A stretch of 37,318 nucleotides of DNA from Syntrophorhabdus sp. PtaU1.Bin058. Its GTDB lineage: Bacteria > Desulfobacterota > Syntrophorhabdia > Syntrophorhabdales > Syntrophorhabdaceae. A program made the translations under genes and the position numbers. The notes below the pieces were generated by a model that ran no database searches, had not been told where the DNA came from, and worked only from the letters and a program-made list of their open reading frames with translations. The DNA is taken from assembly GCA_002067975.1 (NCBI GenBank), contig MVRS01000239.1:1-37318 (forward strand). The letters are read 5' to 3'. This document shows, in pieces, positions 1 to 18,400 of the stretch (position 1 is the first letter of the stretch; each line of letters starts with the position of its first letter).

Positions 1-601
1 CTGATGCAAGGGCAACGGTGCCATTGGTTGCCGTTATCGTCCCTTCATTCGTAATATGGGGGGAGAGGAAGGCGACGTAGCCGCCGTTTACGGTCCCCTG
101 GTTGAGGAGGGAGCCTGCGCTTCCCGTATGCTCAAAGAGGTATTTTCCTGCAAGGAAGTTCTCATTGGTAAGATTAAGGGATGAGGCGACAAGCCCTCCT
201 ACGTCCACCCGGGCAGTGGGACCGAAGTACACCCCTGCGGCATTGAGGAGGAAGACCTGTCCGTTGGCGCTTAACCTCCCGTAGATCAGGGAGGGGTTCT
301 GGTCGAGGATACGGTTTAGGGCCACGCTGGATGCACCGGGCTGGTTGAAGGTGACCAAGGCGTTCTGACCGATGTTGAAGGTATTCCAGTTGGCGATCAT
401 CCTGTCGGTTGCCTGGTTCACGGTCATGGAGCTGCCTGACTGGGAGATGGTGCCGGTGCCTGATACGATCTGCCCGCCTGTGGGGAGGGCGGCGGGGTCG
501 AGGGAGAAGGCAGGCATATAATGGGCAAGAACACAGAGCAGGGTTATGCATAGGGTAATAAAGAACCTGGATATCGTTTTCGTATCGTATCTCTTCTTCA
601 T
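1..601 (-). CDS. Two-partner secretion exoprotein TpsA (filamentous hemagglutinin family), N-terminal ~200 aa only; gene continues beyond the window start
   Basis: Hand translation of the reverse strand from ATG at 601..599 gives MKKRYDTKTISRFFITLCITLLCVLAHYMPAFS... then a TPS secretion domain (TISQSGSSMTVNQATDRMIANWNTFNIGQNALVTFNQPGASSVALNRILDQNPSLIYGRLSANGQVFLLNAAGVYFGPTARVDVGGLVASSLNLT). Open to position 1 with no stop. This frame is absent from the ORF track because it lacks a stop inside the window. It lies 12 bp downstream of tpsB on the same strand. Confidence 0.75.
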   Translation of the reverse strand, partial: MKKRYDTKTISRFFITLCITLLCVLAHYMPAFSLDPAALPTGGQIVSGTGTISQSGSSMTVNQATDRMIANWNTFNIGQNALVTFNQPGASSVALNRILDQNPSLIYGRLSANGQVFLLNAAGVYFGPTARVDVGGLVASSLNLTNENFLAGKYLFEHTGSAGSLLNQGTVNGGYVAFLSPHITNEGTITATNGTVALAS

Positions 602-612
602 GGTCATCCCCT

Positions 613-2346
613 TTATAGCCATATGATAAGCTGGAGCCAGAAGCGTCCGTTGTCATTCAGGTTGTCGGCGTCGTTGCCGGATACGCTCCTGCCGTCGTTG
701 GGACCTACCTTGTGGGCGTAGGATGCCCTCACGCTGTAGAGACCGGGCTTGCCTACGTTGATCCCCACGCCTGCCCCGGAGAGGACATACTCGTTCTTCC
801 CGCTTGCGCTCGTGACGGAGCCGGGCCAGGGACTCCGGTGGAGCTTCACCCACCCTGCGTCAATGAAGCCTGTCAGCTGGGTCGCTGCCCATGAGGGCAT
901 AAAGGGTACATCGTAGCGGGTCTCAAGGGTGAGGGTGTGGCCTTCATCGCCCGGCGCCTCTCCCACGGGATAGGCACGGATGCCCGTGGGGCCTCCGAGG
1001 ATGAACTTCTGGGAGGAGTCGAGGTTGTAGGAGGCGAACTGTCCCTTGAGGGAGCCGAAGAGGGCGACCCTCTGGGTTATGCGCTGGAGACGGGCGAGAG
1101 AGTAGGTTGCCCGCATGAAGGTCCCTTGTGTCCTCGGTCCTGCATCATCGTTCTCCTTGTTGGCGGTAAGTCCCGAGAGGTCAACGTTCCCCCCGGTTAT
1201 GAGAAAAGAGGCGCTGGTGAGCCCCCCGCCCCCGAAGGTATCGAAGAAGCTCCCTGAGACAGAGGCGGTGCCGGTGGAGATCCTCCTGTCCCTCGTCTTC
1301 TCCCCGTTCGCCTCGTCGTTGAGCATCATGTACTCGGCCCCCATGCCTGTCCAGATGCTCGTGTTCCTGGTGCGGACGAGGGGATAGCTTATGCCGGCGG
1401 AGAGGGTGTCTGCCCAGCCCTTTGCCTTGAGGTCGGCGAGGTCCTTGCCCAGCTCATAGGTGAGGCCCGTATAGGCGGCGTTTACGGTAAGGCCCGTTGA
1501 CCCGACGGGGAGGTCGTATGCGGCCCTCCACTGGCTTAAGTGCTCTGCATAGGTGGAGGAGAGGGTCATCTGGTCCCCGAGGCCGAAGGGGTCGTAGGCC
1601 GATACCTGGCCGGTACCCCGGTAGGTGCCGGTATAGCGGTCGCCGAAGGTGTCCCCGGAGAGAAGTCCGTGGAAGACGGGGCCTTCATCGGCATTGATCA
1701 CGATCCGTGTGGTGCCCGGGGCTGCACCGGGTTCAAGGGATGCCCTGGCAGTGATGCCGGGGAGGTCGTTCATGAGGAGCACGGCCCTCTCTATCTGCTC
1801 CATCCTGGCAGGGCCGCCGGAAGGGACGGAACGCTCCGCGATGCCTGCGAGCAGGGAGGGTCTGATCCTTTTGGGCTCCTCCATGTTGATCCTCACCTTC
1901 CCGTCGATGCGGCCCGAGATAATGGCGATGGTGACGATCCCCTCGGTTATGTCCTGTTTGGGGAGGTATGCCCTGGCAAGGAGATAGCCCTTCTTCTCAC
2001 GGAGGTAGGCGGTGACCCGGGAGGCTGCCTCCTGGAGGTCGGCAAAGCCCAGTTCCTTGCCTATGTTGTCCTTGACAAGCTCCTGAAGCTCGGCGTCCGT
2101 TGCGATCGTGTCGAGACCAATGAAGCGGAAGCCCTTGACGAGCACCTTTATGCCCCTGTCGGTCATGGGAGGGGCTATCGTCTCCTTCTCGCGGTCTGCG
2201 GGGAGGCGGTCAGGGAGGGCAGCGCCGGGCTGTCTTTGTTCCTGAAGAAGGATGCCTGCGTCGGGTCTGGTCTGGGCTGTGGCGGCGGTGCATAGGAAAA
2301 GGACAATACAGGTGAAGCAGAAGAATATTCCGGCAGGATGTTTCAC
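613..2346 (-). CDS. TpsB outer-membrane transporter/activator of the ShlB/FhaC/HecB family (POTRA + Omp85-like beta-barrel)
   Basis: 594-aa ORF with signal peptide, POTRA-like segment (LLARAYLPKQDITEGIVTIAIISGRIDGKV) and a C-terminal barrel ending in an aromatic residue. The likely real start is the GTG at 2346 preceded by GAGGGGGAG; the ORF track extends to 2397. Confidence 0.85.
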   Translation of the reverse strand: MKHPAGIFFCFTCIVLFLCTAATAQTRPDAGILLQEQRQPGAALPDRLPADREKETIAPPMTDRGIKVLVKGFRFIGLDTIATDAELQELVKDNIGKELGFADLQEAASRVTAYLREKKGYLLARAYLPKQDITEGIVTIAIISGRIDGKVRINMEEPKRIRPSLLAGIAERSVPSGGPARMEQIERAVLLMNDLPGITARASLEPGAAPGTTRIVINADEGPVFHGLLSGDTFGDRYTGTYRGTGQVSAYDPFGLGDQMTLSSTYAEHLSQWRAAYDLPVGSTGLTVNAAYTGLTYELGKDLADLKAKGWADTLSAGISYPLVRTRNTSIWTGMGAEYMMLNDEANGEKTRDRRISTGTASVSGSFFDTFGGGGLTSASFLITGGNVDLSGLTANKENDDAGPRTQGTFMRATYSLARLQRITQRVALFGSLKGQFASYNLDSSQKFILGGPTGIRAYPVGEAPGDEGHTLTLETRYDVPFMPSWAATQLTGFIDAGWVKLHRSPWPGSVTSASGKNEYVLSGAGVGINVGKPGLYSVRASYAHKVGPNDGRSVSGNDADNLNDNGRFWLQLIIWL

Positions 2347-2536: not shown

Positions 2537-5500
2537 TTACAGCCCTTGGAGTATGGAGGAATAGATGGCCTGGGTCTCAGCGGAAGGGTCTATACTGAGA
2601 TCGTCCCTGAGCAGGCTGCAGCAGCGGTTGTATGTCTTGACGACATCCGCCTTCCTGCCGAGTTTCCCATAGCATTTCATGAGCCTCTGATAGAATTCTT
2701 CGGCGAGATGATCGGTGTCCAGCCCCTGCTGATAAAATTCTACTGCCTGTTCCCATTGTCCGGTTTGCTCATAATGACGGCCGCTTATGCTGATTGCACG
2801 CAACAGGTTGTTTTTCAGCAATTCATGTCTGTGTACAGCCCAGGGCAGGTTGGTGTCAGCCGGAAGGAAAGGTCCTTTATGCAGACCGGCGGCCTTTTCG
2901 CAGAGTTGCACGACCTGATCGGCCGGTGATTTCCTGATCTTTTCGAACACGCGTTCCAGCACCATGCTGTCTACCCAACAATAGAGGGGGTCCAGACTTA
3001 CCTGTCCGGCGCCGTATTTTACAAAATTATCTCCGCCCAGCAGTCGACGCAAACGGCTCATGGTCATTTCGAGGGACTTGTGCGCAAGGTCGCCGTCCGC
3101 ATCGGGCCAGAGCGCCTGGGCCAAACGTTCCACCGGAATGTTGCTGCCGCCATAGGCAATGACGGCCTTGAGCATTTCCAGGGGTTTCTTCTGCACCTTT
3201 CCTGTAAACTCAAGGGGCTTCCCATCCTTGACGATCTCAAATCTCCCGAGGGTGTATATTTTGATGGGATAGGGCCAACATTCAATGAAGGATGCAGAAG
3301 TTGCGAAGGGTAGGTGCAGAGGAGGAGTCAGCCCCAGCTTTCCGATCAACCCCTTCACATATTCCGGTTCTATCCCTTCCGCAAGGGCCCTCGCATAAAG
3401 GAATTGCATGACCGAAGGCTGGTAGAACTCGAGATGGACATAACCATGTTCCCTGCCCAGCAAAAGCCCGCGACGGAGCGACACCAGCCCTTCCTTTTCC
3501 TTTCCTCCCTGCAAAAGGAGATAAGCATCGATCAACAGACCGTACCACTCCATGACGTAGCTCTTCATTCCCAGACCGATCCGGCGCACAGCTTGAACAT
3601 GTTTCTTCGCATCCCTCGTACGGCCTTGCAGAAAGGTCACCTGCGCCATGCCGATATGCCATAAGGCCCGGTAGTAGGGTGTTCCCATGTTCGCCACTTT
3701 GGTGGAGATTGTTTCCATATGTTCGGCGGCAAGGGATGCGTTTCCCGTGAGCATTGCATGCCAGGCGGAATTGATGTGATAAAAGAAAATATCCAGTGCC
3801 TTTGACATGCTGAGAGATGCCGTCCTCTGATTCTGTAGCGATTTCTCCGCAAGCACCATATCGCCGGAGGCCATTTCCGCCGCGGCGCTGAAGCTCCACA
3901 ACAGAGAATCAAAAACATGCACGCCGCTCTTATCGGCGAGACCCAGCCCTTCGGATAGAATCCGCAAGGCGTTTTCATACTGTGCCGTAACCCAGTAATG
4001 AATACCCTTCATCAACTTTATACGGATGGCGGCAAAGGGAGCGGGGCTTTGATTCAGGATTTCAGTCTCGGCCCTTTCAAGCAGAATTTCATTTTTCTGA
4101 TACTCCCCTTTCCACAAATAATAGATACTCATACAAAAGACGGTGTCGATCTGGATATCGACAGAGGGGTTTTTCTGCAACAGAACGGGTATAAGCTTCA
4201 ACAATTCATCCACTTTCTGCGGCTGGTCCGTTTTCCGCAGCGTAAGGCATATCAGCATCCTCGATGATGCGATAAGGTCTACTTCGCTTGAAGGGAAGGA
4301 TGGATAGGCGCTTCTCAGGTTGTTGAAGACCGTGATGCAGTCGTCGAGGTGCTTCCAGTCGTCGAGCTCAAAGGCATAGGTATCCACAATGCCGGCCCAG
4401 GAAAGATACTGGCCCGCTGCATCATCGCCGTCCCTGAACAATGAAAAGGCCAATTCAAGGGCTTCCCTGGTGCGGGGTATGTCGAAGGGGAAGAAACACA
4501 TCCCTTCCCAGTACAAAAACCATGGGTTGCCTGCGGCCGTCTCGCTGGGAATACCCGCGATCCATTCGGCGACGGTTTTGTTCCTTCCCTGATGCAGAAA
4601 TTCCCTTGCGTGGCCTATGACCATCCGGGCGAGATGTTGTCCCTCTCCGGCATCGAGATAAAGCCTGGCAGCACCTTCAATCTGTCCCGACTCTTCCAGC
4701 ATCTGCGCCGCCTTTTTCCTGAGCTTAGCCAGTTTTTCGGGACGATAGAACGTCTTTGCCCGGCTCATCAGGTAATCCCTGAACAACGGATGATAACGGT
4801 AACCCCTGCCGCCGGAAAGTTTCTCGGTAAAATAATTCTGACGGTTCAACTTCGAAAGGATAGACTCCGCAAGGCCCTCGCCCGTAAGCCTTTCTGCCAG
4901 AGGAACACTCAGGCTGGGCAGGAAGGCGGTCTTGAGAAGAAACTCCTGCACCCCTTTTTCCGTTTTTTCAAAGATCTCACCTGCGAAATAATCGAACACG
5001 CGGCCATAGGCAGCATCCGTATCCAATAAGGTTTCCGTTTTGTCGAATCTCGCCCGCTCCAGCACCAGGACGATCCCGGCAGCCCATCCCTCCGTATTTT
5101 CATGTATCTCCTTTATGGATTGATCGTCCATCTGCGGGATGCGTCCCCGGACAAGCTCCCTGGATTCTTTAAACGTAAAACGAATTTCACTATACTCGAG
5201 CACGTTGATCTTTCCGTTGGCTTGCAGACGGGCCAGTGCGGTCGGCGGATCGCTGCGGCTGACGACCACGATTCGAACGCCTTCAGGGACACCGTCGAAT
5301 CCGTTTGCGATCATGTCGTGAAACGGAGAGCCGGCGGGTACATCCTGGTAGTTGTCCAGGACGATGAAGAAACCATTCGGAGTGATGTGTGGTGGGTATC
5401 GGGTTGCGAGACGGTGGTAGAGTTTCTCAAAATACCTTCGGGTAAAGGTAGGAATGCCGGCAAGATATTCCCGTGTCAGAAGCGGGAGGCTCTGCTTATA

Positions 5501-5776
5501 CCGCGGTGCGGCCTTCTTGGCGGCAAGACCCATGTAATAGAAGAACGTTGCAAGGTCTGAATCCCCTTCGTCACATTGATACCAGATGCATGGGAGTTTG
5601 CGGGAATCCAGATAGCTCGAAACAAGGGTTGTCTTCCCGGAACCGGCGGGCGAGGACACCCAGACGACGGACTTCCCCACTTTGCCGTCCAGAATGCCAA
5701 AAACCCTCTGCCTTTGCACCACCCGGGAAAGGTCCGGACGTGTTATTTTAAAATAATTGGGTACAGGGACATCCAT
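2537..5776 (-). CDS. Large STAND/MalT-like signal-transduction NTPase with a C-terminal SARP-type DNA-binding module (OmpR/PhoB winged helix + BTAD)
   Basis: 1079 aa. N-terminal P-loop NTPase (Walker A SSPAGSGKTTL, Walker B FFIVLDNYQD) resembling the MalT/LAL N-domain; a long helical/TPR-like middle region; C-terminal OmpR-type wHTH (YTLGRFEIVKDGKPLEF...LLKAVIAYGG) followed by a BTAD helical domain. The start is 7 bp after the upstream YiiX-like gene stop. Confidence 0.7.
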   Translation of the reverse strand: MDVPVPNYFKITRPDLSRVVQRQRVFGILDGKVGKSVVWVSSPAGSGKTTLVSSYLDSRKLPCIWYQCDEGDSDLATFFYYMGLAAKKAAPRYKQSLPLLTREYLAGIPTFTRRYFEKLYHRLATRYPPHITPNGFFIVLDNYQDVPAGSPFHDMIANGFDGVPEGVRIVVVSRSDPPTALARLQANGKINVLEYSEIRFTFKESRELVRGRIPQMDDQSIKEIHENTEGWAAGIVLVLERARFDKTETLLDTDAAYGRVFDYFAGEIFEKTEKGVQEFLLKTAFLPSLSVPLAERLTGEGLAESILSKLNRQNYFTEKLSGGRGYRYHPLFRDYLMSRAKTFYRPEKLAKLRKKAAQMLEESGQIEGAARLYLDAGEGQHLARMVIGHAREFLHQGRNKTVAEWIAGIPSETAAGNPWFLYWEGMCFFPFDIPRTREALELAFSLFRDGDDAAGQYLSWAGIVDTYAFELDDWKHLDDCITVFNNLRSAYPSFPSSEVDLIASSRMLICLTLRKTDQPQKVDELLKLIPVLLQKNPSVDIQIDTVFCMSIYYLWKGEYQKNEILLERAETEILNQSPAPFAAIRIKLMKGIHYWVTAQYENALRILSEGLGLADKSGVHVFDSLLWSFSAAAEMASGDMVLAEKSLQNQRTASLSMSKALDIFFYHINSAWHAMLTGNASLAAEHMETISTKVANMGTPYYRALWHIGMAQVTFLQGRTRDAKKHVQAVRRIGLGMKSYVMEWYGLLIDAYLLLQGGKEKEGLVSLRRGLLLGREHGYVHLEFYQPSVMQFLYARALAEGIEPEYVKGLIGKLGLTPPLHLPFATSASFIECWPYPIKIYTLGRFEIVKDGKPLEFTGKVQKKPLEMLKAVIAYGGSNIPVERLAQALWPDADGDLAHKSLEMTMSRLRRLLGGDNFVKYGAGQVSLDPLYCWVDSMVLERVFEKIRKSPADQVVQLCEKAAGLHKGPFLPADTNLPWAVHRHELLKNNLLRAISISGRHYEQTGQWEQAVEFYQQGLDTDHLAEEFYQRLMKCYGKLGRKADVVKTYNRCCSLLRDDLSIDPSAETQAIYSSILQGL

Positions 5777-5783
5777 AAAATTA

Positions 5784-6356
5784 TCAATATCTCCGATGCT
5801 TGCAGCCGTCCCATATCTCCTGGGGAAGGATGATGCTCTTCGTCCCCGGAATGTTAAAGACCCTTGCCCCGGTGTTGAGGTCGATCCCGTTCCTCAGATA
5901 CGCCTTGTACGCAAGCTGGCTGCAATAGAAGGCGTCCTCGGTGGATGAGTTGAAAAAATTGATGTTGTACGGTTTTTTGAGCTCTGCCTGCTTGAGGCAG
6001 TATGCTGCGACGTCCTCCCGTATCGCCGCCTCCCGTGCAGTGCCAATATCTCCTGATGCAAGGGGATATGCGATGCCGTAGAGAACATCGGCAAAAGGAC
6101 CCCGCCTGCGTCTCATCTTTTTTGCGTCCCACCTGTGGTCGATAATATCGAAGGTTATCACCTTCCCCTTGGCGCCCGCTTCAACACATCTCCCTTCGGG
6201 GCCGACATAGATAACGATGTGGTCCACGTCCCCCGGTATGAGCTTGCCGATGAGGCGCCAGAACTGCCCGGTGATGTCCTCGGTGCCGCCGTCGGTAGTG
6301 CAGATGAGGTCTCCCGTCTGAACGGCCAGTCTCTCTATCTCATAGGCGTGAACCAT
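5784..6356 (-). CDS. YiiX/YaeF (DUF830) family permuted papain-fold (NlpC/P60-like) hydrolase, cytoplasmic
   Basis: 190 aa. Motifs match E. coli YiiX: TGDLI...DHIVIYVG (His region) and KPYNINFFNSSTEDAFYCSQLAYKAY (catalytic Cys C-terminal to the His, i.e. permuted order). No signal peptide. Confidence 0.65.
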   Translation of the reverse strand: MVHAYEIERLAVQTGDLICTTDGGTEDITGQFWRLIGKLIPGDVDHIVIYVGPEGRCVEAGAKGKVITFDIIDHRWDAKKMRRRRGPFADVLYGIAYPLASGDIGTAREAAIREDVAAYCLKQAELKKPYNINFFNSSTEDAFYCSQLAYKAYLRNGIDLNTGARVFNIPGTKSIILPQEIWDGCKHRRY

Positions 6357-6585
6357 CTCTGCTTTCTATACGCCATTATAGTATCATAATTTTGAATATC
6401 AGTGGATAAAAAAACAGATGCTGGTACTCGATGCCGGAGCATAGCGCAAAGCGCATGGCGCATAGCGGAACAACCAAGCCGTAAGGAGTTTTTTGACTCT
6501 CCACCCTAAGCTCTCCCCGCTTTCTGCTGCAGTTTCCCCTTACGACTCACGCCTCACAACTTACGGGTTTATGCCTCTCACTATC

Positions 6586-6703
6586 TACTATTCACTATCG
6601 ACTGACTTTATTTCAGCTATCAGCAAAAGCTTTTTTGTTTCAGCTGGCAGCTGATTGCTGACAGCTATCTACTATCTACTATTCACTATCGACTATCGAC
6701 TGC
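6586..6703. repeat. Two arrays of tandem heptamers TATCTAC / TATTCAC / TATCGAC: 3 units at 6589-6609 and 5 units at 6667-6701. The nearby run GCGCAAA-GCGCATG-GCGCATA at about 6443-6466 is a separate imperfect repeat.
   Basis: Read directly: ...cTATCTACTATTCACTATCGACtgac... and ...TATCTACTATCTACTATTCACTATCGACTATCGACtg... The second array overlaps the stop codon of the thioesterase gene. Confidence 0.6.
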
Positions 6704-7130
6704 CTTTATATTCTTCCAGCGCCTTTAGGAAGGTCTTAGGGATGGGCGCCGTCTTGCGACGGTTGTAATTGAAGGCCGCAAAACCAGTTTCCATCAAGGC
6801 GATCGGCCTGCCTGCCTTTGATATGCGGTGGAAGAGCCTGAACCTGGTCCCGGAGATCTCCCCCACATGGCTCTCGACGGTCACCTCTTCGAAGAGAAAG
6901 GCCTCTTCCTTGAACGTCACCACCAGGTCGCTCATGATGATACCCGTCTCCCCGTCTCCCAGATCAAGCTCCGTAAGGCCCAGAAGGCGAAAGAGATGCA
7001 CCCTCGCTTCCCAGACCATGGCGATGACAGCATCATGACCGATATGGCCTGAATAGTTCAGATGGCCGATCTGCGCTTCAAGTTTATAGGTAAACTCGTA
7101 TTCCTTCTGTTCCTGCAGGACTACCTTCAA
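6693..7130 (-). CDS. Hotdog-fold acyl-CoA thioesterase (4HBT/YbgC-like)
   Basis: 145 aa with a GHIGHDAVIAMVWEARVHLF segment typical of 4HBT-type thioesterases. Sits downstream of the molybdoenzyme gene on the same strand. Confidence 0.6.
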   Translation of the reverse strand: MKVVLQEQKEYEFTYKLEAQIGHLNYSGHIGHDAVIAMVWEARVHLFRLLGLTELDLGDGETGIIMSDLVVTFKEEAFLFEEVTVESHVGEISGTRFRLFHRISKAGRPIALMETGFAAFNYNRRKTAPIPKTFLKALEEYKGSR

Positions 7131-7177: not shown

Positions 7178-9247
7178 TCAGGCAAGCGAAGGCCCTTCAG
7201 CCCTTCTGATGCTGCACAGCAATCCTTTCCATTGGGGATAACCCATGATGGGCTCCCTGCAGTTGCAGTCCGTCAACCTGTTGCAATTGCCCTCATCAGG
7301 CCACCCGTGAGGCACGAGGACCACGCCTTCCATGACCCTTTCATCCACGTGGGCCTTCATCTTTACCCAGCCGCGGTCAGTCTCAACGATCACGTCGTCC
7401 CCGTGCTTGACATCATACTGTGCGGCTGTTTTCGGTCCTACTTCCGCTTTGGGGAAAGGCGACCACATCTGGAGGGACTTTACGTTGTGGAGCATGGAGC
7501 CGTTAAAATAGAAATCCCGTGTGCCGGTGGAAAGAATGAGAGGATATTTCTCTCCCAGTTCGGCCCAGCGCGGTCCCTGCGGGCTCTTGTCGGGTTCGCG
7601 GTAGGTGGGCAGAGGATCAAACCCCACCCGTTCAAAGGCCTCGCTGTATATCTCGATCTTGCCCGTCGGCGTTGCAAAGGAACCCTGGCGGGTAACGTAT
7701 TCCTTGTTCTGGTAAACGTCGCCCTCCGGTTTTGCCATGAGCGCATCGAAATTGAGCGCACAGGGCTCAAGTTCGAACTTAACCACCTCTGCGTCCGATT
7801 TCCAGGGGAATGTATCGCCGAAACCGCATCGCTGCGCAAGGTCGGTAAAGACTTCGCGGATGGAACGGCATTCATAATAGGGTTCGATGATCGCAGGCCG
7901 GAGCATGAGATACGGGAGGCAGTGGCACACGTTGTAGTTGTATGCGAGGCCCCAGAACTCGAGCTGGTTCGAAGCGGGCAACACGTAATGCGCGTATTCG
8001 GCGGTCTCCGTCATGAACTGCTCGTAGACGACGACGAGGTCCAGTTTCCTGAAGGCGTCCCGCAAGGCGTTGGAATCGGGCATGGTGACGAGAGGGTTGC
8101 CGCCCGCGACAATAAACGCGCGCAGCTTGTCCGGCACGCTCTCCGGAACCATGTTCATGACCGCATAAGGGCTCGTCCTTCCCCAGAGCTCATAGAAAAG
8201 CGGGTACTCTTCCGCACCCAGCGGCTTGCCGGGAAAGGGAAGGCTTGCATCGTTGAGCCTGAGCCTCGGACTGATCACCCATCCTCCGGGGACGTTTATG
8301 TTGCCGCTTAAGACCTGGAGGATGGCGAGGGCGCGGTCGTTCTGGCTGCCGTTGGCGCACTGATCCTGCGTGCAGGTACCGTGGAAGATGCTCGCCCCCT
8401 TCGTTGTGGCAAACCTGCGGGCGAGGGTCCTGATGTCATCGGCCTTGATCCAGGTGATCTTCTCCGCCCACTCGGGGGTATAGGGCTGCACGTGGGGGAC
8501 GAGCCTGTCGAAACCGTAGGTCCACTGCTCGACAAAATCGGCATCATACAGCTTCTCGTTGATTATCACGTTCATCATTGCCAGGGCAAGGGCCCCGTCG
8601 GTGCCCGGCCGTATGGCCAGGTACATCTCTGCCCTGTCTGCAAGAGGGATCCTTCTCGGATCGACGACGATCACCTTTGCGCCCTTCTTCAGGTTCTCTT
8701 CTATAGCGAGCGACAGGGGGAAATCCGAGGCGGCGGGGTTGTGACCCCAGAGCAGGTAGAGATTGGAGTCCATCTCCTCTACGGGGTATTTCCCGAAGGT
8801 GATCTGCCGCGCACGGATCCTCATCCTGTAGCAGATACTTTCAACGGAGAAGAAGTTCGGCGAACCGAAGGCGGCCTTGAACCTGTGCGTCAGCGAGACC
8901 ATCTCCAGGTTCTCAACACCGATGGACCCGCAGAAAAAGGCCACGGCCGCAGGCCCGTACTTCTCCTTCAGGTCATTCAGTTTTCCGGCTATCTCGGACA
9001 TGGCCTGATCCCAGGAGACCCGCTGCCATTCCCCGTCTACCTTTTTCAGGGGGTATTTCAGCCGGTCGGGGTGGTAGAGGTGTTCTATCATTGTCTGTCC
9101 CTTGGGGCAGAGCCTTCCCTTGTTCAACGGATGGGATGCCTGCCCCCGGACCGCCACTGCCTTCCCCTGATCGACGGTCACCTCCACACCGCAACTGTGG
9201 TAACAGAGGGCGCATCCGCTGAAAGCCGTTTTCGTATCACTTTTCAT
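7178..9247 (-). CDS. Molybdopterin (bis-PGD) oxidoreductase family catalytic subunit, cytoplasmic (no Tat signal)
   Basis: 689 aa. N-terminal 4Fe-4S cysteine motif CALCYHSCG...RLCPKG, then the large molybdopterin oxidoreductase and dinucleotide-binding regions. AGGAGG RBS. No in-frame TGA/selenocysteine. Confidence 0.85.
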   Translation of the reverse strand: MKSDTKTAFSGCALCYHSCGVEVTVDQGKAVAVRGQASHPLNKGRLCPKGQTMIEHLYHPDRLKYPLKKVDGEWQRVSWDQAMSEIAGKLNDLKEKYGPAAVAFFCGSIGVENLEMVSLTHRFKAAFGSPNFFSVESICYRMRIRARQITFGKYPVEEMDSNLYLLWGHNPAASDFPLSLAIEENLKKGAKVIVVDPRRIPLADRAEMYLAIRPGTDGALALAMMNVIINEKLYDADFVEQWTYGFDRLVPHVQPYTPEWAEKITWIKADDIRTLARRFATTKGASIFHGTCTQDQCANGSQNDRALAILQVLSGNINVPGGWVISPRLRLNDASLPFPGKPLGAEEYPLFYELWGRTSPYAVMNMVPESVPDKLRAFIVAGGNPLVTMPDSNALRDAFRKLDLVVVYEQFMTETAEYAHYVLPASNQLEFWGLAYNYNVCHCLPYLMLRPAIIEPYYECRSIREVFTDLAQRCGFGDTFPWKSDAEVVKFELEPCALNFDALMAKPEGDVYQNKEYVTRQGSFATPTGKIEIYSEAFERVGFDPLPTYREPDKSPQGPRWAELGEKYPLILSTGTRDFYFNGSMLHNVKSLQMWSPFPKAEVGPKTAAQYDVKHGDDVIVETDRGWVKMKAHVDERVMEGVVLVPHGWPDEGNCNRLTDCNCREPIMGYPQWKGLLCSIRRAEGPSLA

Positions 9248-9295: not shown

Positions 9296-9979
9296 TCACG
9301 CTTTGTGCAACTCCTTCCCGGAGGCCGGACTTCTTTCAGGTCTCTTCTTCCGGACACTCCCACGATTTTCCCCGGAAACTTCATCGTTCCTGATCCCGTC
9401 TAAAACCAGCTTTACTATCTGTGTATGGAATTCCAGCAAATCCCCCTTTTCACCCTTGAGGAGCCAGCGCGCCACGCCATGTTCCAGCACGCCCAGAAGC
9501 AACTGGCGTATAATATATGGGTTTATATCGTCCCTTATTGTCTTTTCCCTCTGACCCTCCTTTATGACGTCAAGAACCATGGATGCAAATCTCCTGAGCA
9601 GATTGTAGCCTTTTGCCTTCAGAAAGCTCTTGCTCACACGCATATCCAGCATTACGATCCGCGCATACTCAGGATTTGTCTTAAAGAAATACAGGTAGTA
9701 CCACACGAATTTTGCTATCTTGTTCGGGGTGTCCTGTATCCCCTGGAGGTGCAGATCAAGCCCCTCAAGAAATTCATGTGTCTTTTCCTGCGGTATAAAG
9801 AAAAAGAGGTCTTCCTTGTTCATGAAGTGCTGATAGATCGTCCCCTCTGCAACGTTTGCCTCTTTTGCGATCTCGGATATGTTCGCGTCACGATAGCTCT
9901 TCCTTCCGAATACCCTGATCGCCGCCTCGACTATCTGCTGTCTTGTCACAACCTTCTTCATCATTAAAACCATATTCAA
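9296..9979 (-). CDS. TetR/AcrR family transcriptional regulator
   Basis: N-terminal TetR HTH (QQIVEAAIRVFGRKSYRDANISEIAKEANVAEGTIYQHF). The 9979 start is a TTG; the real start is probably one of the ATGs a few codons in (MVLMMKK). Confidence 0.8.
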   Translation of the reverse strand: MNMVLMMKKVVTRQQIVEAAIRVFGRKSYRDANISEIAKEANVAEGTIYQHFMNKEDLFFFIPQEKTHEFLEGLDLHLQGIQDTPNKIAKFVWYYLYFFKTNPEYARIVMLDMRVSKSFLKAKGYNLLRRFASMVLDVIKEGQREKTIRDDINPYIIRQLLLGVLEHGVARWLLKGEKGDLLEFHTQIVKLVLDGIRNDEVSGENRGSVRKKRPERSPASGKELHKA

Positions 9980-10155
9980 TTATTTTATGAACAATATTTT
10001 AAAATAAATCAAAACTATGTCAAGGAAAATATATCGAAAATTTCATTAAGGTCCTTGCCTGCCATTCCTTTGTAGCTCATAATATATTGAAATATAAAAT
10101 AATTATAATTATTAGTAATAGTTTCAATATCCATTGTAGATGCTTTATCATAAAT

Positions 10156-10300
10156 ATGAATGTAATTCATTTTTATTATGAATTTTATTCAATTTTGTGA
10201 GAATGATCTTCATGGGAAATGATCCGATTCAATCCCCCTCGGCCCTTTCGGGAAATATCCGGAGAGATAAAAAATGTTTCGGTTCACATATCGATACGTG
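10156..10300. promoter_or_regulatory. Candidate operators in the divergent TetR-TetR intergenic region: inverted repeats ATGAAT-gta-ATTCAT (10156-10170) and TGAAT-ttt-ATTCA (10179-10191); near-palindrome CACATATCGATACGTG (10285-10300); possible -35 TTGACA at 10317-10322 and -10 TATTTT at 10340-10345
   Basis: Read directly. The 380-bp spacer 9980-10359 is about 75% A+T in a 60% GC genome. Confidence 0.3.
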
Positions 10301-10359
10301 CGTATAATTATAATTCTTGACATGGCGTAATAACTTTTATATTTTGAACATAGGTTCAC

Positions 10360-10935
10360 ATGAACAGACGTTCAGCTAAAGATTCGAAGAGCAGCATCCT
10401 CGACGCCGCATTGAAGGCATTCTCGGAACACGGGTACAGCGGTGCAAACATGAGGACGATCGCCGGCAATGCCAATATAAGCGTCGGCGGTCTTTATCTC
10501 TATTTCAAAAGCAAGGAGGCCTTGTGCCTGAGCCTCATGAAGGAGCGGCTGGAAGAACTCTCCTCAAAAACTGAACGGATTGTCAAGGATACATACAACC
10601 CCGCTGAGGCAATCGAGAAGTTTATCTCAATCAACCTTGACTATACAAAGGAGCACAGGGAGATCATCCTGACACAGGGCAGGGATAAAGGATTTACATT
10701 CGGGGCTGATGTAAAAAAAAGATTTTTCAGACAACAGAGAAAGTTTGTGGAAAAGATCATCAGGGAGGGTGTACGGACAGGTGTTTTCCTTGAATGCAAT
10801 GTACCGGAGACGGCGAAGATTGTAACCGCTATGCTGCGCGGATTCGTTCTTTCTGTCCTCCTCGAACCCGATGGTCTTTTCAACGTCAGGGGTTGCTGCG
10901 AGTTTGTGCTGCGGGGGTTATTAAAGAACGTATGA
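10360..10935 (+). CDS. TetR/AcrR family transcriptional regulator (probable regulator of the downstream RND pump)
   Basis: TetR HTH: ILDAALKAFSEHGYSGANMRTIAGNANISVGGLYLYFKSKEAL. Directly upstream of the mdtA-like gene. Confidence 0.85.
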   Translation: MNRRSAKDSKSSILDAALKAFSEHGYSGANMRTIAGNANISVGGLYLYFKSKEALCLSLMKERLEELSSKTERIVKDTYNPAEAIEKFISINLDYTKEHREIILTQGRDKGFTFGADVKKRFFRQQRKFVEKIIREGVRTGVFLECNVPETAKIVTAMLRGFVLSVLLEPDGLFNVRGCCEFVLRGLLKNV

Positions 10936-11069
10936 GCCGCAGGGTATCAACGGCCTTTTCAAATTCAGCAGGCGGCAGGGCAATGCGGGCGGATAAAGCG
11001 CTCTTCTCGGTATGGTGCGTGTTTCGACACAACACCCTTACCACACAACCTTAGGAGGACACGGATACG

Positions 11070-12290
11070 ATGCGTGCGCAGGAAACTAAGAAAAACGACA
11101 TTACGAAGAAGGTCTCTTTTACTCCACTTTTGAGACGCTGGTGGGTTTTGCCGGCAGCGGCCTGCATCATTATCCTGGGGGTATACGTATTTCTGATAAA
11201 ACCTGGTATGGCGCAATCAGATGCCTCCAGGAAAAAAACGGGTGCCCAGATGCGCAGCATACCGGTTACAGTAGCGGCGGTTAAGAAAGGGGACATGTCC
11301 GTGTACCTCACCGGACTGGGTACGGTGACCCCGCTCAATACCGTGACCGTCAGGACCCGGGTGGACGGACAGCTCATGGATGTCTATTACCGGGAAGGCC
11401 AAACCGTCAACAAGGGGGACATGCTGGCGCTCATCGATACGAGGCCTTTCGAGGTGCAGCTGGCACAGGCAGAGGGACAACTGGCACGTGATAAGGCGAT
11501 CCTCGCCAATGCACGGATTGACCTCGACCGCTATCGTGTACTCTGGAAGCAGGATTCCATCTCAAAACAGCAGCTCGATACCCAGGAGGCGCTGGTCAGG
11601 CAATATGAAGGCGTTGTAAAGGTCGACCAGGGGTTGATTGATAGCGCCAGGCTCCAGTTGTCCTATTGCCGGATTACCTCACCGATCACGGGCCGTATCG
11701 GGCTTCGTCTTGTGGACCCGGGCAATATGGTCCACGCGAGCGATGGAAGCGGCCTTATTGTGATTACCCAGATCCAGCCGATGACGGTCGTGTTTTCCAT
11801 CCCGGAAGACAGCCTTCCGCAGGTACATCGCCGGTTCAAAACGGGCGTGCAGTTGCCGGTGGAGGCCTATGATCGTGAACAAAAGGAGAAACTTGCCACA
11901 GGGTACCTGTTGACGATCGACAACCAGATCGATACAAGCACGGGGACCGTTAAGCTCAAGGCAACCTTCCCGAACAAACAGAACGAGCTGTTTCCCAATC
12001 AGTTTGTGAACGCCCGGCTGCTTGTCGACGTCCGGCGGGGGGCCGTTATCGTGCCGTCATCCGCTATACAGCGTGGTCCCCAGGGGACCTTTGTTTATGT
12101 GGTGAAGGAAGGCCGGACGGTCACGGTGCGCCCGGTCAGTATCGGTGAGATCCAGGGCGGTGAAGCCTCAATAAAGACAGGTGTCTCGCCGGGTGAATCG
12201 GTCGTGACGGACGGCGCAGACAGACTCATAGAGGGGGCAAAGGTAGAGCCAAAACGCGGGGGCGGCGAAACCTCTCAAAAGGACCGCTGA
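11070..12290 (+). CDS. mdtA: RND efflux periplasmic adaptor (membrane fusion protein), MdtA-like
   Basis: 406 aa with N-terminal TM anchor, lipoyl/beta-barrel MFP motifs and AGGAGGA RBS. The stop overlaps the next start (TGATG). Confidence 0.85.
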
Positions 12291-15200
12291 TGAACCTTTC
12301 CCGCCTTTTCATAACCCGGCCCGTAGCGACAACGCTGCTTATGGTCGCGATCTTTTTAAGCGGCGTTGTAGCATACAAGCAGCTTTCGGTATCCGCCCTG
12401 CCCCAGGTGGATTATCCGACCATTCAGGTGCGGACCTTCTATCCCGGCGCAAGCCCTGACGTCATTGCCTCTTCCGTAACGGCCCCGCTGGAGCGTCAGT
12501 TCGGCCAGATGCCCGGCCTGACCCAGATGACCTCGACAAGCTCAAGCGGCAGCTCTATCATCACGCTCCAGTTCTCTCTGAACTTAAGCCTTGACGTTGC
12601 CGAGCAGCAGGTCCAGGCGGCCATAAACGCCTCCTTCACCTATCTGCCTCGCGATCTTCCGATCCCCCCGGTGTACAGCAAGGTAAACCCTGCTGACGCC
12701 CCGATCCTGACGCTCGGCTTGACCTCCGAAACGATGCCGCTTACGCAGGTGGAGGACCTTGCGGATACCAGGTTTGCACAAAAGATCTCACAACTCCCCG
12801 GGGTGGGGCTGGTAAGCATCAGCGGCGGGCAAAGACCGGCCGTGAGGGTCCACGCCAACCCAGCGGCCCTGGCGGCGTACGGCCTGACCCTGGAGGACCT
12901 GAGGGCCGCTATTGCGGCTGCAAACGTCAACCAGGCAAAGGGGAGCTTCGACGGTCCCCGCCTCTCCTATATCATAGGCGCCAACGATCAGCTTTTCTCG
13001 AGTAAAGAATACCGGTCCCTGATCGTCGCCTACCGTAACGGTGCGCCTGTCAGGCTGTCCGATGTTGCCGAGGCCGTCGATGACGCCGAAAACATAAAGC
13101 AGGCCGCCTGGATGAACGCTTCCCCTGCGGTTATCGTCAACATCCAGCGGCAGCCGGGTGCAAACGTCATAGAGGTAGTTGACCAGATCAAGAAGGTGCT
13201 CCCGCAGCTCCAGAGCGCCCTTCCGCCTGCCGTAAAGGTCTCCGTGTTGACCGACCGCACCACCACGATCCGGGCGTCGGTCCATGACGTCCAGTTTGAG
13301 ATGATGCTTGCCGTGGCGCTTGTCGTTATGGTCATGTTTCTCTTCCTTCGCAACCTCGCTGCAACGATCATCCCCAGCGTAGCCGTACCCCTCTCCCTCG
13401 TGGGAAGCTTCGGCGCCATGTATCTCATGGGATTCAGCCTGAACAACCTCTCCCTGATGGCCCTCACCATCTCCACCGGCTTCGTGGTGGACGACGCGAT
13501 CGTCATGATCGAGAACGTGGCCAGGTATATTGAGGCAGGGGACCCTCCGCTCCAGGCGGCCCTGAAGGGCTCCAAGCAGATAGGCTTTACCATCCTGTCT
13601 CTCACTGTCTCGCTCATCGCCGTGCTCATTCCGCTTTTGTTTATGGGGGACGTGGTAGGCCGTCTGTTCAGGGAGTTCGCCGTCACCCTCGGCATTACCA
13701 TAGTGATCTCCGCCGTCGTATCACTCACACTCACCCCGATGATGTGCGCGAAGCTGCTCAGGCACGGGGACGAGGTCCGGCAGGGAAGATTCTACCGCTC
13801 GTCGCAGAGGGTCCTTGACCGGGTGATCGGGTTCTACGGAAGGACGCTGGCATGGGTGCTGAGACACCAGAGAGCCACCCTCTGGGTGGCCGTAGGCACA
13901 CTGGTCTTTACGATCCTATTGTTTTATTACGTGCCCAAGGGCTTCTTTCCGGTCCAGGATACCGGGCTTATTCAGGGGATATCGGAAGCGCCCCAGTCGA
14001 TCTCCTTCACGGCCATGGCCGAGCGCCAGCAGGCCCTTGCCCGGGTGATCCTCAGGGACCCGGCGGTCGAAAGCCTCTCGTCCTTCATCGGCATAGACGG
14101 GACGAACGTTACACTCAACAGCGGTCGGATACTTATCAACCTTAAGCCCCTTGCAAAGCGGAAGATAGACGCAAGCGAGGTGATCCGGCGCCTCCAGCCC
14201 GAACTTGCCAGGGTCGAAGGGATCACGCTGTTCATGCAGCCCGTACAGGACCTTACCGTCGATGCACGGGTGGCCCGTACCCAGTATCAGTATACCCTCG
14301 AGGACCCCGACATCGATGAGCTGAATGCGCTGGCCCCCAGGCTTGTCGAATCGCTCCGCAGCAATCCCGGGCTTCGCGACGTGAGCAGCGACCAGCAGGA
14401 CAAGGGGCTGCAGGTCTTTATTGAATTCGACCGCAATACCGCCTCACGGCTGGGCATTACGCCGCAGATGATCGATGACGCCCTCTATGACGCATTCGGA
14501 CAGCGTCAGGTCTCCACCATCTTTACCCAGTTAAATCAATACCGCGTTGTCCTTGCCGTTAAGCCCGATTTTCAGAAAGGCCTGGAGGCGCTGCAATCCA
14601 TCTACCTTCGCAGCGCAAACAACGGGCGGGTGCCCCTCGGGACGCTCATCAAGACCTCGGAGACCACGGGGCCGCTTGTTATCAGCCGCCAGGGACAGTT
14701 TCCCGCTGCCACGATCTCCTTCAACCTGGCGCCCGGAACAGCCCTCGGACATGCGGTAACGGCTATAGAATCCGCCGAGAGCAAGATGGACTTCCCGGCC
14801 AGCATCAGGGGCAGCTTCCAGGGGACCGCACAGGCCTTCAGGGCCTCCCTTCAAAATGAATTGTTCCTGATCCTCGCGGCCCTCGTGACTGTCTATATCG
14901 TCCTCGGGATACTCTATGAGAGCTATATACACCCCATAACGATCCTGTCCACGCTGCCGTCTGCAGGAGTAGGGGCGATCCTCGCGCTCCTGATCTGCCG
15001 CTCAGAGTTCAGCGTCATCGCTCTCATCGGCATCATCCTGCTCATCGGCATTGTGAAGAAGAACGGCATCATGATGGTGGACTTTGCCCTGGAGGCGGAG
15101 CGTACGGAAGGGAAAAGCCCCCGGGATGCGATCTACCAGGCCTCTCTCCTCAGGTTCCGTCCCATCATGATGACCACCATGGCGGCGCTCCTCGGCGCCC

Positions 15201-15406
15201 TCCCGTTGGCCATAGGGACAGGTGTGGGATCGGAACTTCGCCACCCCCTGGGCATTACGATCGTCGGCGGGCTGATCATCAGCCAGTTACTGACCCTCTA
15301 CACGACGCCCGTGATCTACCTCGCCTTTGACCGCTTAGCACAGCGGGTGCGGCTATGGCGGTCCGGAAAGGCAGGCGGAGAGAGGGAAGGCGCGGACCGT
15401 CAATGA
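12290..15406 (+). CDS. mdtB: RND multidrug efflux transporter permease, MdtB-like
   Basis: 1038 aa, 12-TM RND architecture with two large periplasmic loops and conserved AcrB/MdtB-type segments. First of two tandem RND paralogs following an MFP, which is the mdtABC arrangement. Confidence 0.9.
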
Positions 15407-18400
15407 ACTTCTCGGCGATCTTTATCCAGAGACCCGTGGCCACCACCCTCATCACCCTCGGGATAGTGCTCTCCGGGATAGTTGCCTTTCATATGCTGCC
15501 CGTCGCCCCGCTGCCCCAGGTCGATTTTCCTACGATCCAGGTATCGGCGGGACTGCCGGGTGCGGACCCCGAGACCATGGCAACATCCGTTGCCGCACCG
15601 CTCGAGCGCCAATTCGGGCGCATAGCGGGTGTAACTGAAATGACATCCACAAGCTTCCGCGGCACGACGAACATCACGATGCAGTTCGACCTGAACCGCA
15701 ATATCGACGGCGCCGCCCGCGATGTGCAGGCGGCGATCAACGCGGCCAGGGGGTTCCTGCCGCCGAACCTTCCCAACAATCCGACGTACCGCAAGGTCAA
15801 CCCTGCCGACGCGCCCATCCTTATCGTTGCCCTCCAGTCCGACGTGATAGGCACGCCCCAGTTGTATGACGCCGCATCGAGCATCATGCAGCAGAAGCTC
15901 TCGCAGGTGGACGGCGTGGGCCAGGTATTCGTCGGGGGCAGTTCCCTCCCTGCCGTCCGCGTGGAGGTTAACCCCAAGGCGCTGAACAAGTACGGGATCA
16001 GTCTGGAGGACGTGCGCGGCGTGCTGGCCTCCACCAACATAAACAAACCGAAAGGACAATTGTCGGACGATACGAAGACGTGGGAGATAAAGGCCAATGA
16101 TCAGCTTCGAAAGGCCGTTCAGTACCGGCAGGTGATCGTTGCTTACAAGGCCGGTGCTGCGGTACGGCTGCCGGACGTGGCAAACGTAGAGGATTCGGTG
16201 GAGGACGTGCAGACCGGCGGTTTCGTGAACGGCAAACCGGCCGTCATGGTAATCATCTTCCGTCAGCCGGGGGCGAATATCATCGAGACCGTGGACCGCG
16301 TTCGCGACCTCCTCCCTCAGCTGGCAGCCTCCTTGCCAGGGAGCGTCAGGGTGTCGGTCGTGCAGGACCGCACACCGCCCATACGCGGCTCCCTGAAAGA
16401 CGTTGAGAAGGCGCTCATCATCTCCGCGGCCCTTGTGATCCTCGTGGTCTTCGGCTTTTTAAGGCACATCCGCTCCACCATTGTCCCCGCCGTTGCAGTA
16501 GGCGTGTCGCTCATCGGTGCATTCGGGATCATGTACCTCTGCAACTATAATCTCGACAACCTCTCCCTCATGGCACTCACCATAGCCACCGGATTCGTGG
16601 TGGACGACGCTATCGTCGTCCTTGAGAACATTACCCGCTATATGGAAAAGGGACTGTCCCCCGTGGAGGCTGCGCTGCGGGGATCCAGGGAGATCGCCTT
16701 TACGGTCCTCTCAATGAGCATCTCCCTTGTAGCCGTATTCATCCCTATCCTCCTGATGGGCGGCATGGTGGGCCGTCTGTTCCGAGAGTTTGCCGTGACC
16801 CTTTCTGCCGCGATCATGGTCTCCCTCGTGGTCTCCCTCACCACAACACCCATGATGTGTGCCGTATTTCTCAGGCCTGAAAAAAGCTATGTCCACCACG
16901 GGCTTCACAGGGTAAGCGAGAAGGTCTTTGGCTGGATGTTAAACCGTTACGACCTGACGCTCAGGTGGGCGCTGCGCCACTCACGCTTCATGCTCGCCGT
17001 AACGGTGGCCACGTTCATGGTCAATGTCTTCCTCTTCTTCGTCGTCCCCAAGGGCTTTTTTCCGGAAACGGATACAGGGCGCATTCGGGGCACCATTCAG
17101 GCGGAACAGGATGTGTCCTTTCAGGCCATGAAGGCCAAGCTGGCGACCGTAATCAACATCATCAAAGAAGACCCCGACGTGGAACATGTGGCCGGCCATA
17201 CCGGTGGCGGAAGGGGCGGCAGCGCGCTGAATACCGCATCGATGTTTATTACGTTGAAACCCTTTGAACAACGAAAAAGCAGCTTGAGCGACCTGATGTC
17301 AAGGCTCCGGAAGAAACTTGCAGTATTGCCCGGGGCAGCCACCTATCTCCAGCCTGTACAGGACCTCCGTATAGGAGGAAGAGGCGGCAACGCACTCTAT
17401 CAGTATACGCTCCAGGCGGGTGAAATATCGGAGCTGTATGCATGGGGTCCGCGCATCGTCCAGAAGATGCGTACGTTACCCGAACTGGTGGATGTAAGCA
17501 GCGACCAGCAGGTAAAGGGGCTGCAAGCCACGCTGGTGATCGACCGGAATACGGCCTCACGGCTCGGGATCACGGCTGCCATGATCGACAACACCCTCTA
17601 CGATGCCTTCGGCCAGCGCCAGGTCTCTATCATCTACTCGCTCCTGAACCAATACCGCGTGGTCATGGTCGTCGATCCCCGTTTCTGGCAAAGCCCGGAT
17701 ACGCTGAAGGAGATTTATATAAAGTCCACCAACGGGGCGATGGTCCCGCTCAGCGCCTTTGCGAAGTTCGAACGGACCGCCACTTCCCTTGCCGTTGCCC
17801 ACCAGGGCCAGTTTCCTTCCGTCACGATCTCCTTTAATCTGGCACCGAAGGTGCCTCTCGGGAACGCGGTGGCATCGATCGAGCGGGCCGGACGGGAGAT
17901 GGGTTTCCCTTCCACTATCAGGGGGAGTTTCTCGGGCACGGCCCAGGCGTTCAAAGACTCGGTGGCCAATCAGCCGCTCCTGATCCTTGCGGCCCTCGTG
18001 ACTGTCTACATCGTCCTCGGCATGCTCTATGAGAGCTACATACATCCCATAACTATCCTGTCCACGCTGCCGTCCGCCGGGGTAGGGGCGCTTTTGGCGC
18101 TGCTCATCTGCCGCACGGAGTTGAGCCTGATCGGCCTGATCGGTCTCTTCCTGCTCATCGGCCTTGTGAAGAAGAACGGCATCATGATGGTCGACTTTGC
18201 ACTGGAGGCTGAGCGCAGGGAAGGAAAAGGACCCGGAGAGGCGATCCACGAGGCCTGCCTGCTGAGGTTCCGCCCCATCATGATGACCACCATGGCGGCG
18301 CTCCTCGGCGCCCTCCCGTTGGCGCTGGGCATGGGGATAGGGTCCGAGCTTCGCCGGCCCCTTGGCATCACGATCGTAGGCGGGCTGTTGATCAGCCAGA

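Follow-up and report, generated by a model that had tools for sequence, protein, structure and literature searches.

The window analysed here is a 37,318-nt stretch of DNA from Syntrophorhabdus sp. PtaU1.Bin058, covering positions 1–37,318 of the forward strand of contig MVRS01000239.1 (assembly GCA_002067975.1). Its minus strand carries a gene for a STAND NTPase with a SARP output domain, referred to below as the regulator, followed by a short promoter region and a two-partner secretion (TPS) locus; all coordinates given for these genes, their domains and their promoter elements refer to that strand. Read in the direction of transcription, the series begins with a 190-residue open reading frame (ORF) for a predicted YiiX-like permuted NlpC/P60 (C92) cysteine hydrolase (5784–6356). 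Its stop codon is separated by 7 nt (5777–5783), as read from the sequence, from the ATG of the 1079-residue ORF of the regulator (2537–5776), the translation of which has a start that agrees with the N-termini of its homologues. Beyond a 139-nt, AT-rich intergenic region (2398–2536; 35% GC) lie tpsB (613–2397), for an Omp85-type TPS transporter, and the 5′ part of tpsA (1–622), for a secreted exoprotein, which runs off the end of the window. An earlier note on this DNA, made from the sequence alone, had placed the YiiX-like and regulator genes in 2537–6356 with this spacing, and its layout of them was right.

The regulator has the domain order MalT-type NTPase, sensor, SARP. Its N-terminal part (residues 10–418; 4523–5749) is a MalT-type nucleotide-binding oligomerisation module comprising a P-loop NTPase, a winged helix and an arm. 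Residues 12–418 match positions 8–409 of the NCBIfam MalT model NF003420 (E = 5e-51), and residues 10–418 match the solved nucleotide-binding oligomerisation domain (NOD) of MalT, 8bob (E = 6e-32). The Walker A sequence SSPAGSGKTTL (GSGKT at residues 45–49) aligns with TSPAGYGKTTL of MalT and the Walker B sequence IVLDN (Asp141, Asn142) with LVID; homologues of the regulator also carry the precomputed annotation PF25873 (WHD_MalT). The NF003420 score of 174 bits is far under the MalT equivalog cut-off of 537, and the regulator is therefore not a MalT orthologue. Asn142 (5353–5355) replaces the second acidic residue of Walker B, which is Asp-Asp in MalT, and Asn is found at this position in at least 90% of the family; it may signify that ATP is hydrolysed slowly or not at all, so that binding would drive the switch.

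The NTPase module is followed by a helical-repeat sensor region (residues 419–830; 3287–4522) that is weakly TPR_MalT-like. The match to PF17874 covers residues 600–798 (E = 0.0024) and scores 17.6 bits against a cut-off of 45, and homologues likewise carry a "weak" flag for this family. The SARP output domain is not N-terminal, occupying residues 841–1077 of 1079 (2546–3256). It consists of an OmpR-type winged helix (approximately residues 841–935), whose match to Pfam Trans_reg_C, taken alone, is weak (E = 0.007), and a BTAD domain (residues 939–1076, E = 1e-20). Positions 32–267 of an AfsR model match residues 841–1077, and only the SARP part of that model is matched. A profile of the last 254 residues, built from 21 family members, aligns end to end with the SARP domain of AfsR (30–265, E = 5e-13) and with EmbR (19–257, E = 6e-10). 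For the C-terminal region, the AlphaFold model (predicted local distance difference test score, pLDDT, 90.6) can be superposed over ∼252 residues on both EmbR and the SARP domain of AfsR, with template modelling (TM) scores of 0.67–0.70 and E of ∼1e-10. The predicted recognition helix is K900-S-L-E903-M-T-M-S907-R-L-R. No GerE/LuxR-type helix-turn-helix matches at the C-terminus, which is a winged helix-turn-helix plus BTAD unit. These matches support the N-terminal NTPase and the C-terminal winged helix/BTAD, the order which the earlier note had proposed; its assignment of the NTPase as MalT-like is also borne out by NF003420 and 8bob, as opposed to a NACHT or Avs type, and so is its view that the order is the reverse of that in AfsR, in which the SARP domain is N-terminal (PMC10936776).

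The regulator belongs to a very large family that is annotated yet uncharacterised. Among the matches listed there are more than 120 full-length clusters with 52–91% identity, and a search with residues 700–1079 reached, at E ≤ 1e-30, at least 3,024 proteins that each represent a 50%-identity cluster. Among the best 150 of these 3,024 matches, the full-length proteins (∼1,070 residues) are matched at their C-terminal end, and the shorter ones are fragment-like. The loci that we compared number 81: 79 come from genomes that represent species of Desulfobacterota, Nitrospirota, Acidobacteriota, Beta-, Gamma- and Zetaproteobacteria and Chloroflexota, and the other two are the metagenome contigs L163 and L164, whose regulators are 66–69% identical. 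An exact-sequence look-up of the regulator in a contig index gave no match. Since such proteins go by "BTAD domain-containing putative transcriptional regulator" or "MalT/SARP family" in databases, the architecture has already been annotated; in the literature we found no description of the reversed MalT–SARP architecture, of its operator, or of SARP control of two-partner secretion. Across the family the sensor region (59% conservation) is as conserved as the NTPase (58–60%) though the genes behind the regulator differ, which suggests that there may be one common signal rather than signals specific to each cargo.

Box, promoter and genes behind the regulator

The intergenic region 2398–2536 contains, in order, a T-rich tract (2497–2514), a tandem direct repeat with an 11-nt period (2476–2495), a gap of 11 nt and the −10 element TATAAT (2459–2464). 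The repeat, which we call the box and predict to be an operator, starts 41 nt past the regulator stop codon and reads ATCTGTGGG-cg-ATCTGTGGG, with its upstream repeat at 2487–2495 and its downstream repeat at 2476–2484; its general form is ATCTGTGGG-NN-ATCTGTGGG. There is no −35 consensus, and the box stands in its place. The box of the window and its spacing from the −10 element were taken directly from the sequence, not from the family alignment. The T-tract lies directly upstream of the box at a position that is conserved in the family alignment (consensus ttTtttcc before the box), and it may be an UP-like element. Because no hairpin lies ahead of it, the tract is not an intrinsic terminator, and no terminator-like site was found in 2398–2536.

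The 20-nt box pattern has one exact site in the 37-kb window, where 0.04 sites are expected at up to three mismatches. A strict definition of the box (exact 11-nt spacing, at most two mismatches per repeat, coding strand, no more than 700 nt downstream of the regulator gene) gives 30 matches in 29 of the 79 genome loci, irrespective of the downstream gene. The box is also present in L163, in L164 and in L082, a contig ∼90% identical in DNA to the window across this region. Only nine strict matches lie in other parts of the 1.28 Mb, of which both strands were searched; two of them are directly before a small ORF described below (L004, L020), and others are in L054 and L063, where regulator paralogues stand in tandem. 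Under a relaxed definition (two 9-mers 11 nt apart, at least 7/9 alike, with an ATCnGT core), applied to loci with enough downstream sequence, a box is found in 51 of 72 loci; the controls gave 3/72 for the reverse strand and 2/76 for upstream regions. More distant family members have the variant repeats ATCyGTAAC and ATCyGTTAC, and L059, whose regulator is 34% identical, has a divergent tandem repeat with a CTAACC pair. Of the 30 informative rows in the family alignment, 22 have a TAnnnT motif exactly 11 nt past the box.

Tandem sets of at least two regulator paralogues, or of fragments of these, occur in five loci (L015, L054, L058, L063 and L065). Further copies of the box, with slightly different repeat sequences, are seen in L054 and L063. 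The tandem paralogues and extra boxes suggest that regulator–operator pairs have duplicated and diverged.

Published SARP targets have tandem repeats 11 or 22 bp apart in a box that overlaps the −35 region, with 8 bp between the 3′ repeat and the −10 element, and two SARP protomers bind the direct repeats side by side, one helical turn apart (PMC10936776). The AfsR box, for example, is 22 bp long, comprises two 11-bp direct repeats, overlaps the −35 region and lies near the −10 element (PMC10936776). In the window the distance from box to −10 element is 11 nt when measured from the 9-mer and 9 bp when measured from the downstream 11-bp unit, and the predicted operator agrees in its geometry with the published layout.

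The type of box also varies together with the recognition helix. All 23 GGG-type boxes accompany regulators with Glu at residue 903 (helix K-S-F/L-E-x-T-L-S-R-L-R), and 11 of the 12 AAC-type boxes accompany regulators with Lys or Arg at this position, in most cases together with His at 907. Such a pairing would be expected if the winged helix of the regulator reads the box.

Downstream, the box promoter of the window leads straight into tpsB, with no small ORF between them. The tpsB frame opens at GTG 2397; a second candidate, GTG 2346, stands behind GAGGGGGA and corresponds to the start called in L082, and it is likely to be the true one. The tpsA start candidates (ATG 622, 607 and 601) lie at the tpsB stop codon (613–615), so that tpsA is tightly linked to tpsB. 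The product of tpsB has a POTRA domain (POTRA_2, E = 6e-15) and a ShlB barrel (E = 2e-21), and the adjoining tpsA fragment encodes a TPS domain (PF05860, E = 4e-28), a combination that identifies two-partner secretion of type Vb. Compared with L082, tpsB is 85% identical and the tpsA fragment 82% identical (by tblastn); the TpsA orthologue in L082 has a TPS domain (E = 1.5e-35) and GLUG repeats. The TpsA-type exoprotein locus that had been placed downstream of the regulator is thus confirmed, with tpsB coming before tpsA. An Arg/Pro-rich ORF of 160 residues (174–656, minus strand) shadows the 5′ region of tpsA out of frame, and we rejected it as a gene; the 71% "match" that it has in L082 is in a different frame from the TPS-domain protein.

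Elsewhere in the family the first gene after the box is often a small ORF. An ORF of ∼66–88 residues holds this position in 29 of the 79 regulator loci (for example L014:3573–3788 and L007:8721–8930) and also in L163 (10317–10520), and neighbour clustering across the 79 loci found no conserved protein partner besides it. It is recognised by the motif SFIVRVYR...GLVE...DEL and an Arg/Lys-rich basic tail, within the consensus MTE..t.eSFIVRVYRvD..Dp.kitGLVE..DGSG...pF.d.dELg..L, and it matches no Pfam family. In most loci its ATG follows the box by 23–28 nt and so coincides with, or adjoins, the predicted transcription start; its mRNA is for this reason probably leaderless. The small ORF was not found in the window or in L082.

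The genes that follow the small ORF or the box vary, and mostly encode surface or secreted proteins. They include an autotransporter (L016), a 1953-residue cadherin-like protein (L002), proteins with FG-GAP, BACON, CBM96 and beta-helix features, a peptidyl-prolyl isomerase, a HAP2/GCS1 pair (L026) and TpsB (L059). Gene by gene, base composition gave no clear sign of recent cargo exchange.

The pair in L026 (JBBRBA010000051.1, a contig from the metagenome-assembled genome (MAG) Geobacterales bacterium) consists of tandem, full-length homologues of the gamete fusogen HAP2/GCS1, at 13548–15161 and 15188–16783, directly behind a cassette of regulator, box and small ORF. Both match PF10699 over nearly the whole model (E = 2e-60 and 3e-58), and both match the eukaryotic HAP2 structures 5ow4, 6dbs, 5ow3 and 7s0k (phmmer, E = 1e-16 to 1e-24). 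No title or abstract returned by our literature search describes bacterial HAP2/GCS1 homologues; archaeal fusexins were reportedly described in 2022.

The YiiX-like gene

Against Pfam C92 (PF05708) the 190-residue protein scores 25.5 bits, under the 27-bit cut-off; many of its orthologues carry a precomputed PF05708 match. His46 and Cys145 (in YCSQLAY) are invariant in 20 YiiX-like orthologues and stand in the permuted His-then-Cys order; by analogy they would be the catalytic residues. The structural model (pLDDT 78, with two low-confidence segments) has YiiX (2if6) as its best fold match in the PDB, with a Foldseek probability of 0.98, TM of 0.40 and E of 0.016, and a family profile matches 2if6 marginally. 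The protein resembles the C92 proteins YiiX and YaeF of Escherichia coli, its best match in both sequence and fold, in having His before Cys, and differs from them in its low identity (15%), in its low fold score and in belonging to a separate, tight subfamily whose members are 60–88% identical. Its designation as YiiX-like is weaker than that of the regulator but acceptable, distant though the protein is.

The 7-nt spacer, and a GGAGA sequence 13 nt ahead of the regulator ATG, make it likely that the YiiX-like gene and the regulator are co-transcribed. The earlier note had gone further and called the two genes translationally coupled, which is only plausible. Directly upstream of the YiiX-like gene, a consensus scan picks out a sigma-70-like candidate, CTGATA-16-TATAAT (6375–6402, minus strand; 10/12 matches), as a possible promoter of the YiiX–regulator transcript; such sites are not above shuffled expectation in this region.

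The pairing of the two genes was tested in both directions, with tblastn and with family profiles. None of the 81 regulator loci has a YiiX-like gene near the regulator by tblastn (flanks of up to 10 kb), and the family-profile search of these loci gave one marginal YiiX-like match (E = 8.5e-4), ∼6.7 kb away. Conversely, none of 82 loci with YiiX-like orthologues (59–88% identical) carries the regulator, 61 of them having at least 1 kb of downstream sequence; the 88%-identical orthologue, on a 193-kb contig, is followed by a cation-efflux gene. The sole contig that keeps the pair is L082, in the order thioesterase, YiiX, regulator, TpsB, TpsA, and because it is so nearly identical to the window it does not count as independent evidence. 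In L164, whose regulator is 67% identical, an upstream gene for 191 residues was considered as a YiiX homologue and rejected, its product being an unrelated His/Met-rich protein. We conclude from these comparisons that the YiiX-like gene is best regarded as a lineage-specific upstream neighbour of the regulator, probably on the same transcript, with no conserved functional link to it.

The YiiX-like loci L083–L162 have recurrent same-strand neighbours of their own, mostly immediately upstream (for example L096:1109–2086 and L126:3340–4428). Fifteen loci have a DUF6765 protein (E = 1.5e-68) and 14 have calcineurin-like metallophosphoesterases, with possibly more of the latter in two smaller unannotated clusters. 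These neighbours suggest a different functional context for the YiiX-like enzyme.

Proposed mechanism and alternative explanations

The regulator combines features of two known types, and by its sequence we assign it to neither the MalT nor the AfsR type. Like E. coli MalT, it has a P-loop NTPase, winged helix and arm, homologous over ∼400 residues, then a helical-repeat sensor and a C-terminal DNA-binding domain, and by analogy it would be expected to oligomerise in response to ligand and ATP and so to bind repeated sites cooperatively. It differs from MalT in its output, which is SARP in place of a LuxR/GerE helix-turn-helix, in the Asp-Asn of its Walker B, where MalT has Asp-Asp, and in its predicted operator, a tandem 11-bp repeat that replaces the −35 element, whereas MalT uses MalT boxes. 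With AfsR of Streptomyces coelicolor, a "large" SARP, it shares the combination of SARP domain, STAND NTPase and repeat sensor, a SARP domain that can be aligned over its whole length (profile E = 5e-13; fold TM 0.67–0.68) and the box logic. The small-protein gene afsS lies immediately downstream of afsR, and the small ORF behind the box in relatives recalls this arrangement. In AfsR, however, the SARP domain is at the N-terminus and the NTPase is of the NB-ARC/AP-ATPase type, whereas the regulator has its SARP domain at the C-terminus, an NTPase of the MalT type and no NB-ARC-type NOD C-terminal to SARP. Its hosts, moreover, are Gram-negative anaerobes (Desulfobacterota, Nitrospirota and others) and not actinomycetes, and its target in the window would be a secretion operon, with the small ORF missing. 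The fold that best matches the C-terminal 254 residues is that of EmbR from Mycobacterium tuberculosis (2fez/2ff4; TM 0.70, E = 1e-10); EmbR and the small SARPs of the ActII-ORF4/DnrI type share the winged helix–BTAD unit and the tandem-repeat logic with the regulator, but they comprise SARP alone or SARP plus FHA, without an NTPase switch.

We propose, with a probability of roughly 0.7, that the regulator is a MalT-style STAND switch with a SARP output that activates the promoter right behind its own gene, in the window that of tpsBA. A signal- and ATP-gated activator of this promoter is the most likely function because the box is conserved, has SARP geometry and covaries with the recognition helix. 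A SARP unit (OmpR-type winged helix plus BTAD) takes the place of the LuxR-type helix-turn-helix of MalT. In the steps that we envisage, drawn by analogy with MalT and AfsR, a signal at the helical-repeat region, together with ATP, would release the NTPase module and allow it to oligomerise; a pair of SARP domains would then occupy, as neighbours, the two 11-bp direct repeats (each ATCTGTGGGnn) that stand in for the −35 element; and RNA polymerase would be recruited to the TATAAT 11 nt further on, leading to transcription of the tpsB–tpsA operon. We infer activation rather than repression in this scheme, as we do oligomerisation and the nature of the signal. The earlier note had suggested a regulator of the TPS operon with a ligand made or processed by the YiiX-like enzyme; the conserved SARP-type box in 2398–2536 favours the regulatory half of that idea, whereas the YiiX-like protein drops out as partner and ligand maker.

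Several considerations weigh against the proposed activation of tpsBA. DNA binding, the transcription start and activation all derive from computation. The covariation of box and helix is confounded by phylogeny, and its count overstates independence, because the box types follow clades. With no terminator in 2398–2536, read-through from the upstream transcript could also express tpsBA. In most close relatives the box drives the ∼70-residue ORF, the tpsBA link being a lineage-specific rearrangement seen only in the window and L082, and this link could in principle have lost its function. Within the protein, Asn in place of the second acidic residue of Walker B may mean an ATPase cycle different from that of MalT, and the Pfam matches to TPR_MalT and Trans_reg_C are both under cut-off.

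The tandem repeat might be read by another factor, such as the product of the small ORF, or might be a repressor or roadblock site, with the targets of the regulator lying elsewhere. Binding of the regulator to the box is something that we infer, and the conserved, basic-tailed ORF that comes after the repeat in 29 of 79 loci has a product that could itself bind nucleic acid. We nevertheless think this unlikely, as the window and L082 keep the box though they lack the small ORF, and the variant of the box tracks the regulator's own recognition helix. The position of the box in the −35 place, at a fixed distance from the −10 element, is moreover the layout of a SARP activator (PMC10936776) and not that of a roadblock, and besides the nine matches noted above, some before small ORFs or in paralogue loci, the 1.28 Mb of flanking sequence contains no box.

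The earlier note had further proposed that the YiiX-like hydrolase and the regulator form a two-gene module, in which the hydrolase would make or process the ligand of the regulator. The 7-nt gap between stop and start codons on the same strand, and the retention of the pair in the closest relative, L082, are what speaks for it; L082, however, is too close to the window to be independent, the 79 genome loci and L163 and L164 have no YiiX-like gene by tblastn, with a single marginal profile match ∼6.7 kb off, the 82 YiiX-like loci have no regulator, and the YiiX-like family keeps its own company of DUF6765 proteins and metallophosphoesterases. Because orthologues of the two genes are not adjacent in other genomes, the module fails the test set for it in advance, and we consider it very improbable. 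Least credible of all is a role in defence, the other possibility raised in that note, with the STAND protein as an Avs/NLR-like anti-phage sensor and the hydrolase acting as the effector. The core of Avs systems is formed by STAND NTPases with repeat sensors, and a predicted hydrolase does adjoin the regulator. Yet PADLOC models run against the regulator, the YiiX-like protein, TpsB and the 160-residue ORF gave only a generic TPR model on the regulator (E = 1.5e-6), and no defence-system model matched either of the two proteins concerned; the NTPase is of MalT and not of Avs/NACHT type, its fused output is a DNA-binding SARP domain with a conserved, apparently cognate operator, the adjacent hydrolase is not a conserved neighbour, and the surrounding genes are metabolic and secretion genes with no defence island among them.

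The activator reading can be extended, more tentatively, to the family as a whole. The regulator gene, T-tract, 22-bp box and −10 element might constitute a portable, self-contained cassette, distributed over several phyla, that places diverse surface and secreted proteins (TPS proteins, autotransporters, giant cadherin-like adhesins, HAP2/GCS1-like proteins) under one conserved signal. The ancestral first product would then have been a leaderless, basic-tailed, AfsS-like relay of ∼70 residues, lost in the window, where tpsBA would have been wired directly to the box. We regard this as a possibility that is rather less probable than its alternatives taken together.

Wider significance and neighbouring genes

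SARP regulators have been studied almost only in actinomycetes, as N-terminal domains controlling antibiotic genes. Here a MalT-type switch carries the SARP unit at its C-terminus, and the family, found in anaerobic Gram-negative lineages, has thousands of members. Since its operator can be read from comparative sequence, the family offers a testable promoter–regulator pair for hosts that are hard to study and often uncultured, such as Syntrophorhabdus, Smithellaceae, relatives of Geobacter and Nitrospirota, and with it a handle on the regulation of their surface adhesins and exoproteins. As a second, independent fusion of SARP with a STAND NTPase, it is also useful for comparing how NLR-like switches gate an activator of the sigma-adaptor type. 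The placing of the YiiX-like enzyme outside the regulator system removes a false lead.

Further upstream on the minus strand, the YiiX-like gene is preceded by genes for a 4HBT_2 thioesterase (6693–7130) and a molybdopterin oxidoreductase (7178–9247). A scan of the whole window against Rfam found no RNA family. The intergenic region between the thioesterase and YiiX-like genes contains, in the stretch 6432–6672, ∼210 nt of extra DNA compared with L082, flanked by direct repeats of ACTATCTACTATTCACTATCGACTG-like sequence (at 6580–6611 and 6664–6709), and looks like a local duplication or small insertion. Beyond the oxidoreductase, the stretch 9296–19956 begins with a TetR regulator (9296–9979, minus strand) and a second, divergent TetR (10360–10935, plus strand), followed by an HlyD-type membrane-fusion protein (11070–12290) and two ORFs of ∼1040 residues that by appearance resemble resistance-nodulation-division (RND) pumps; this stretch is unrelated to the regulator and its box.

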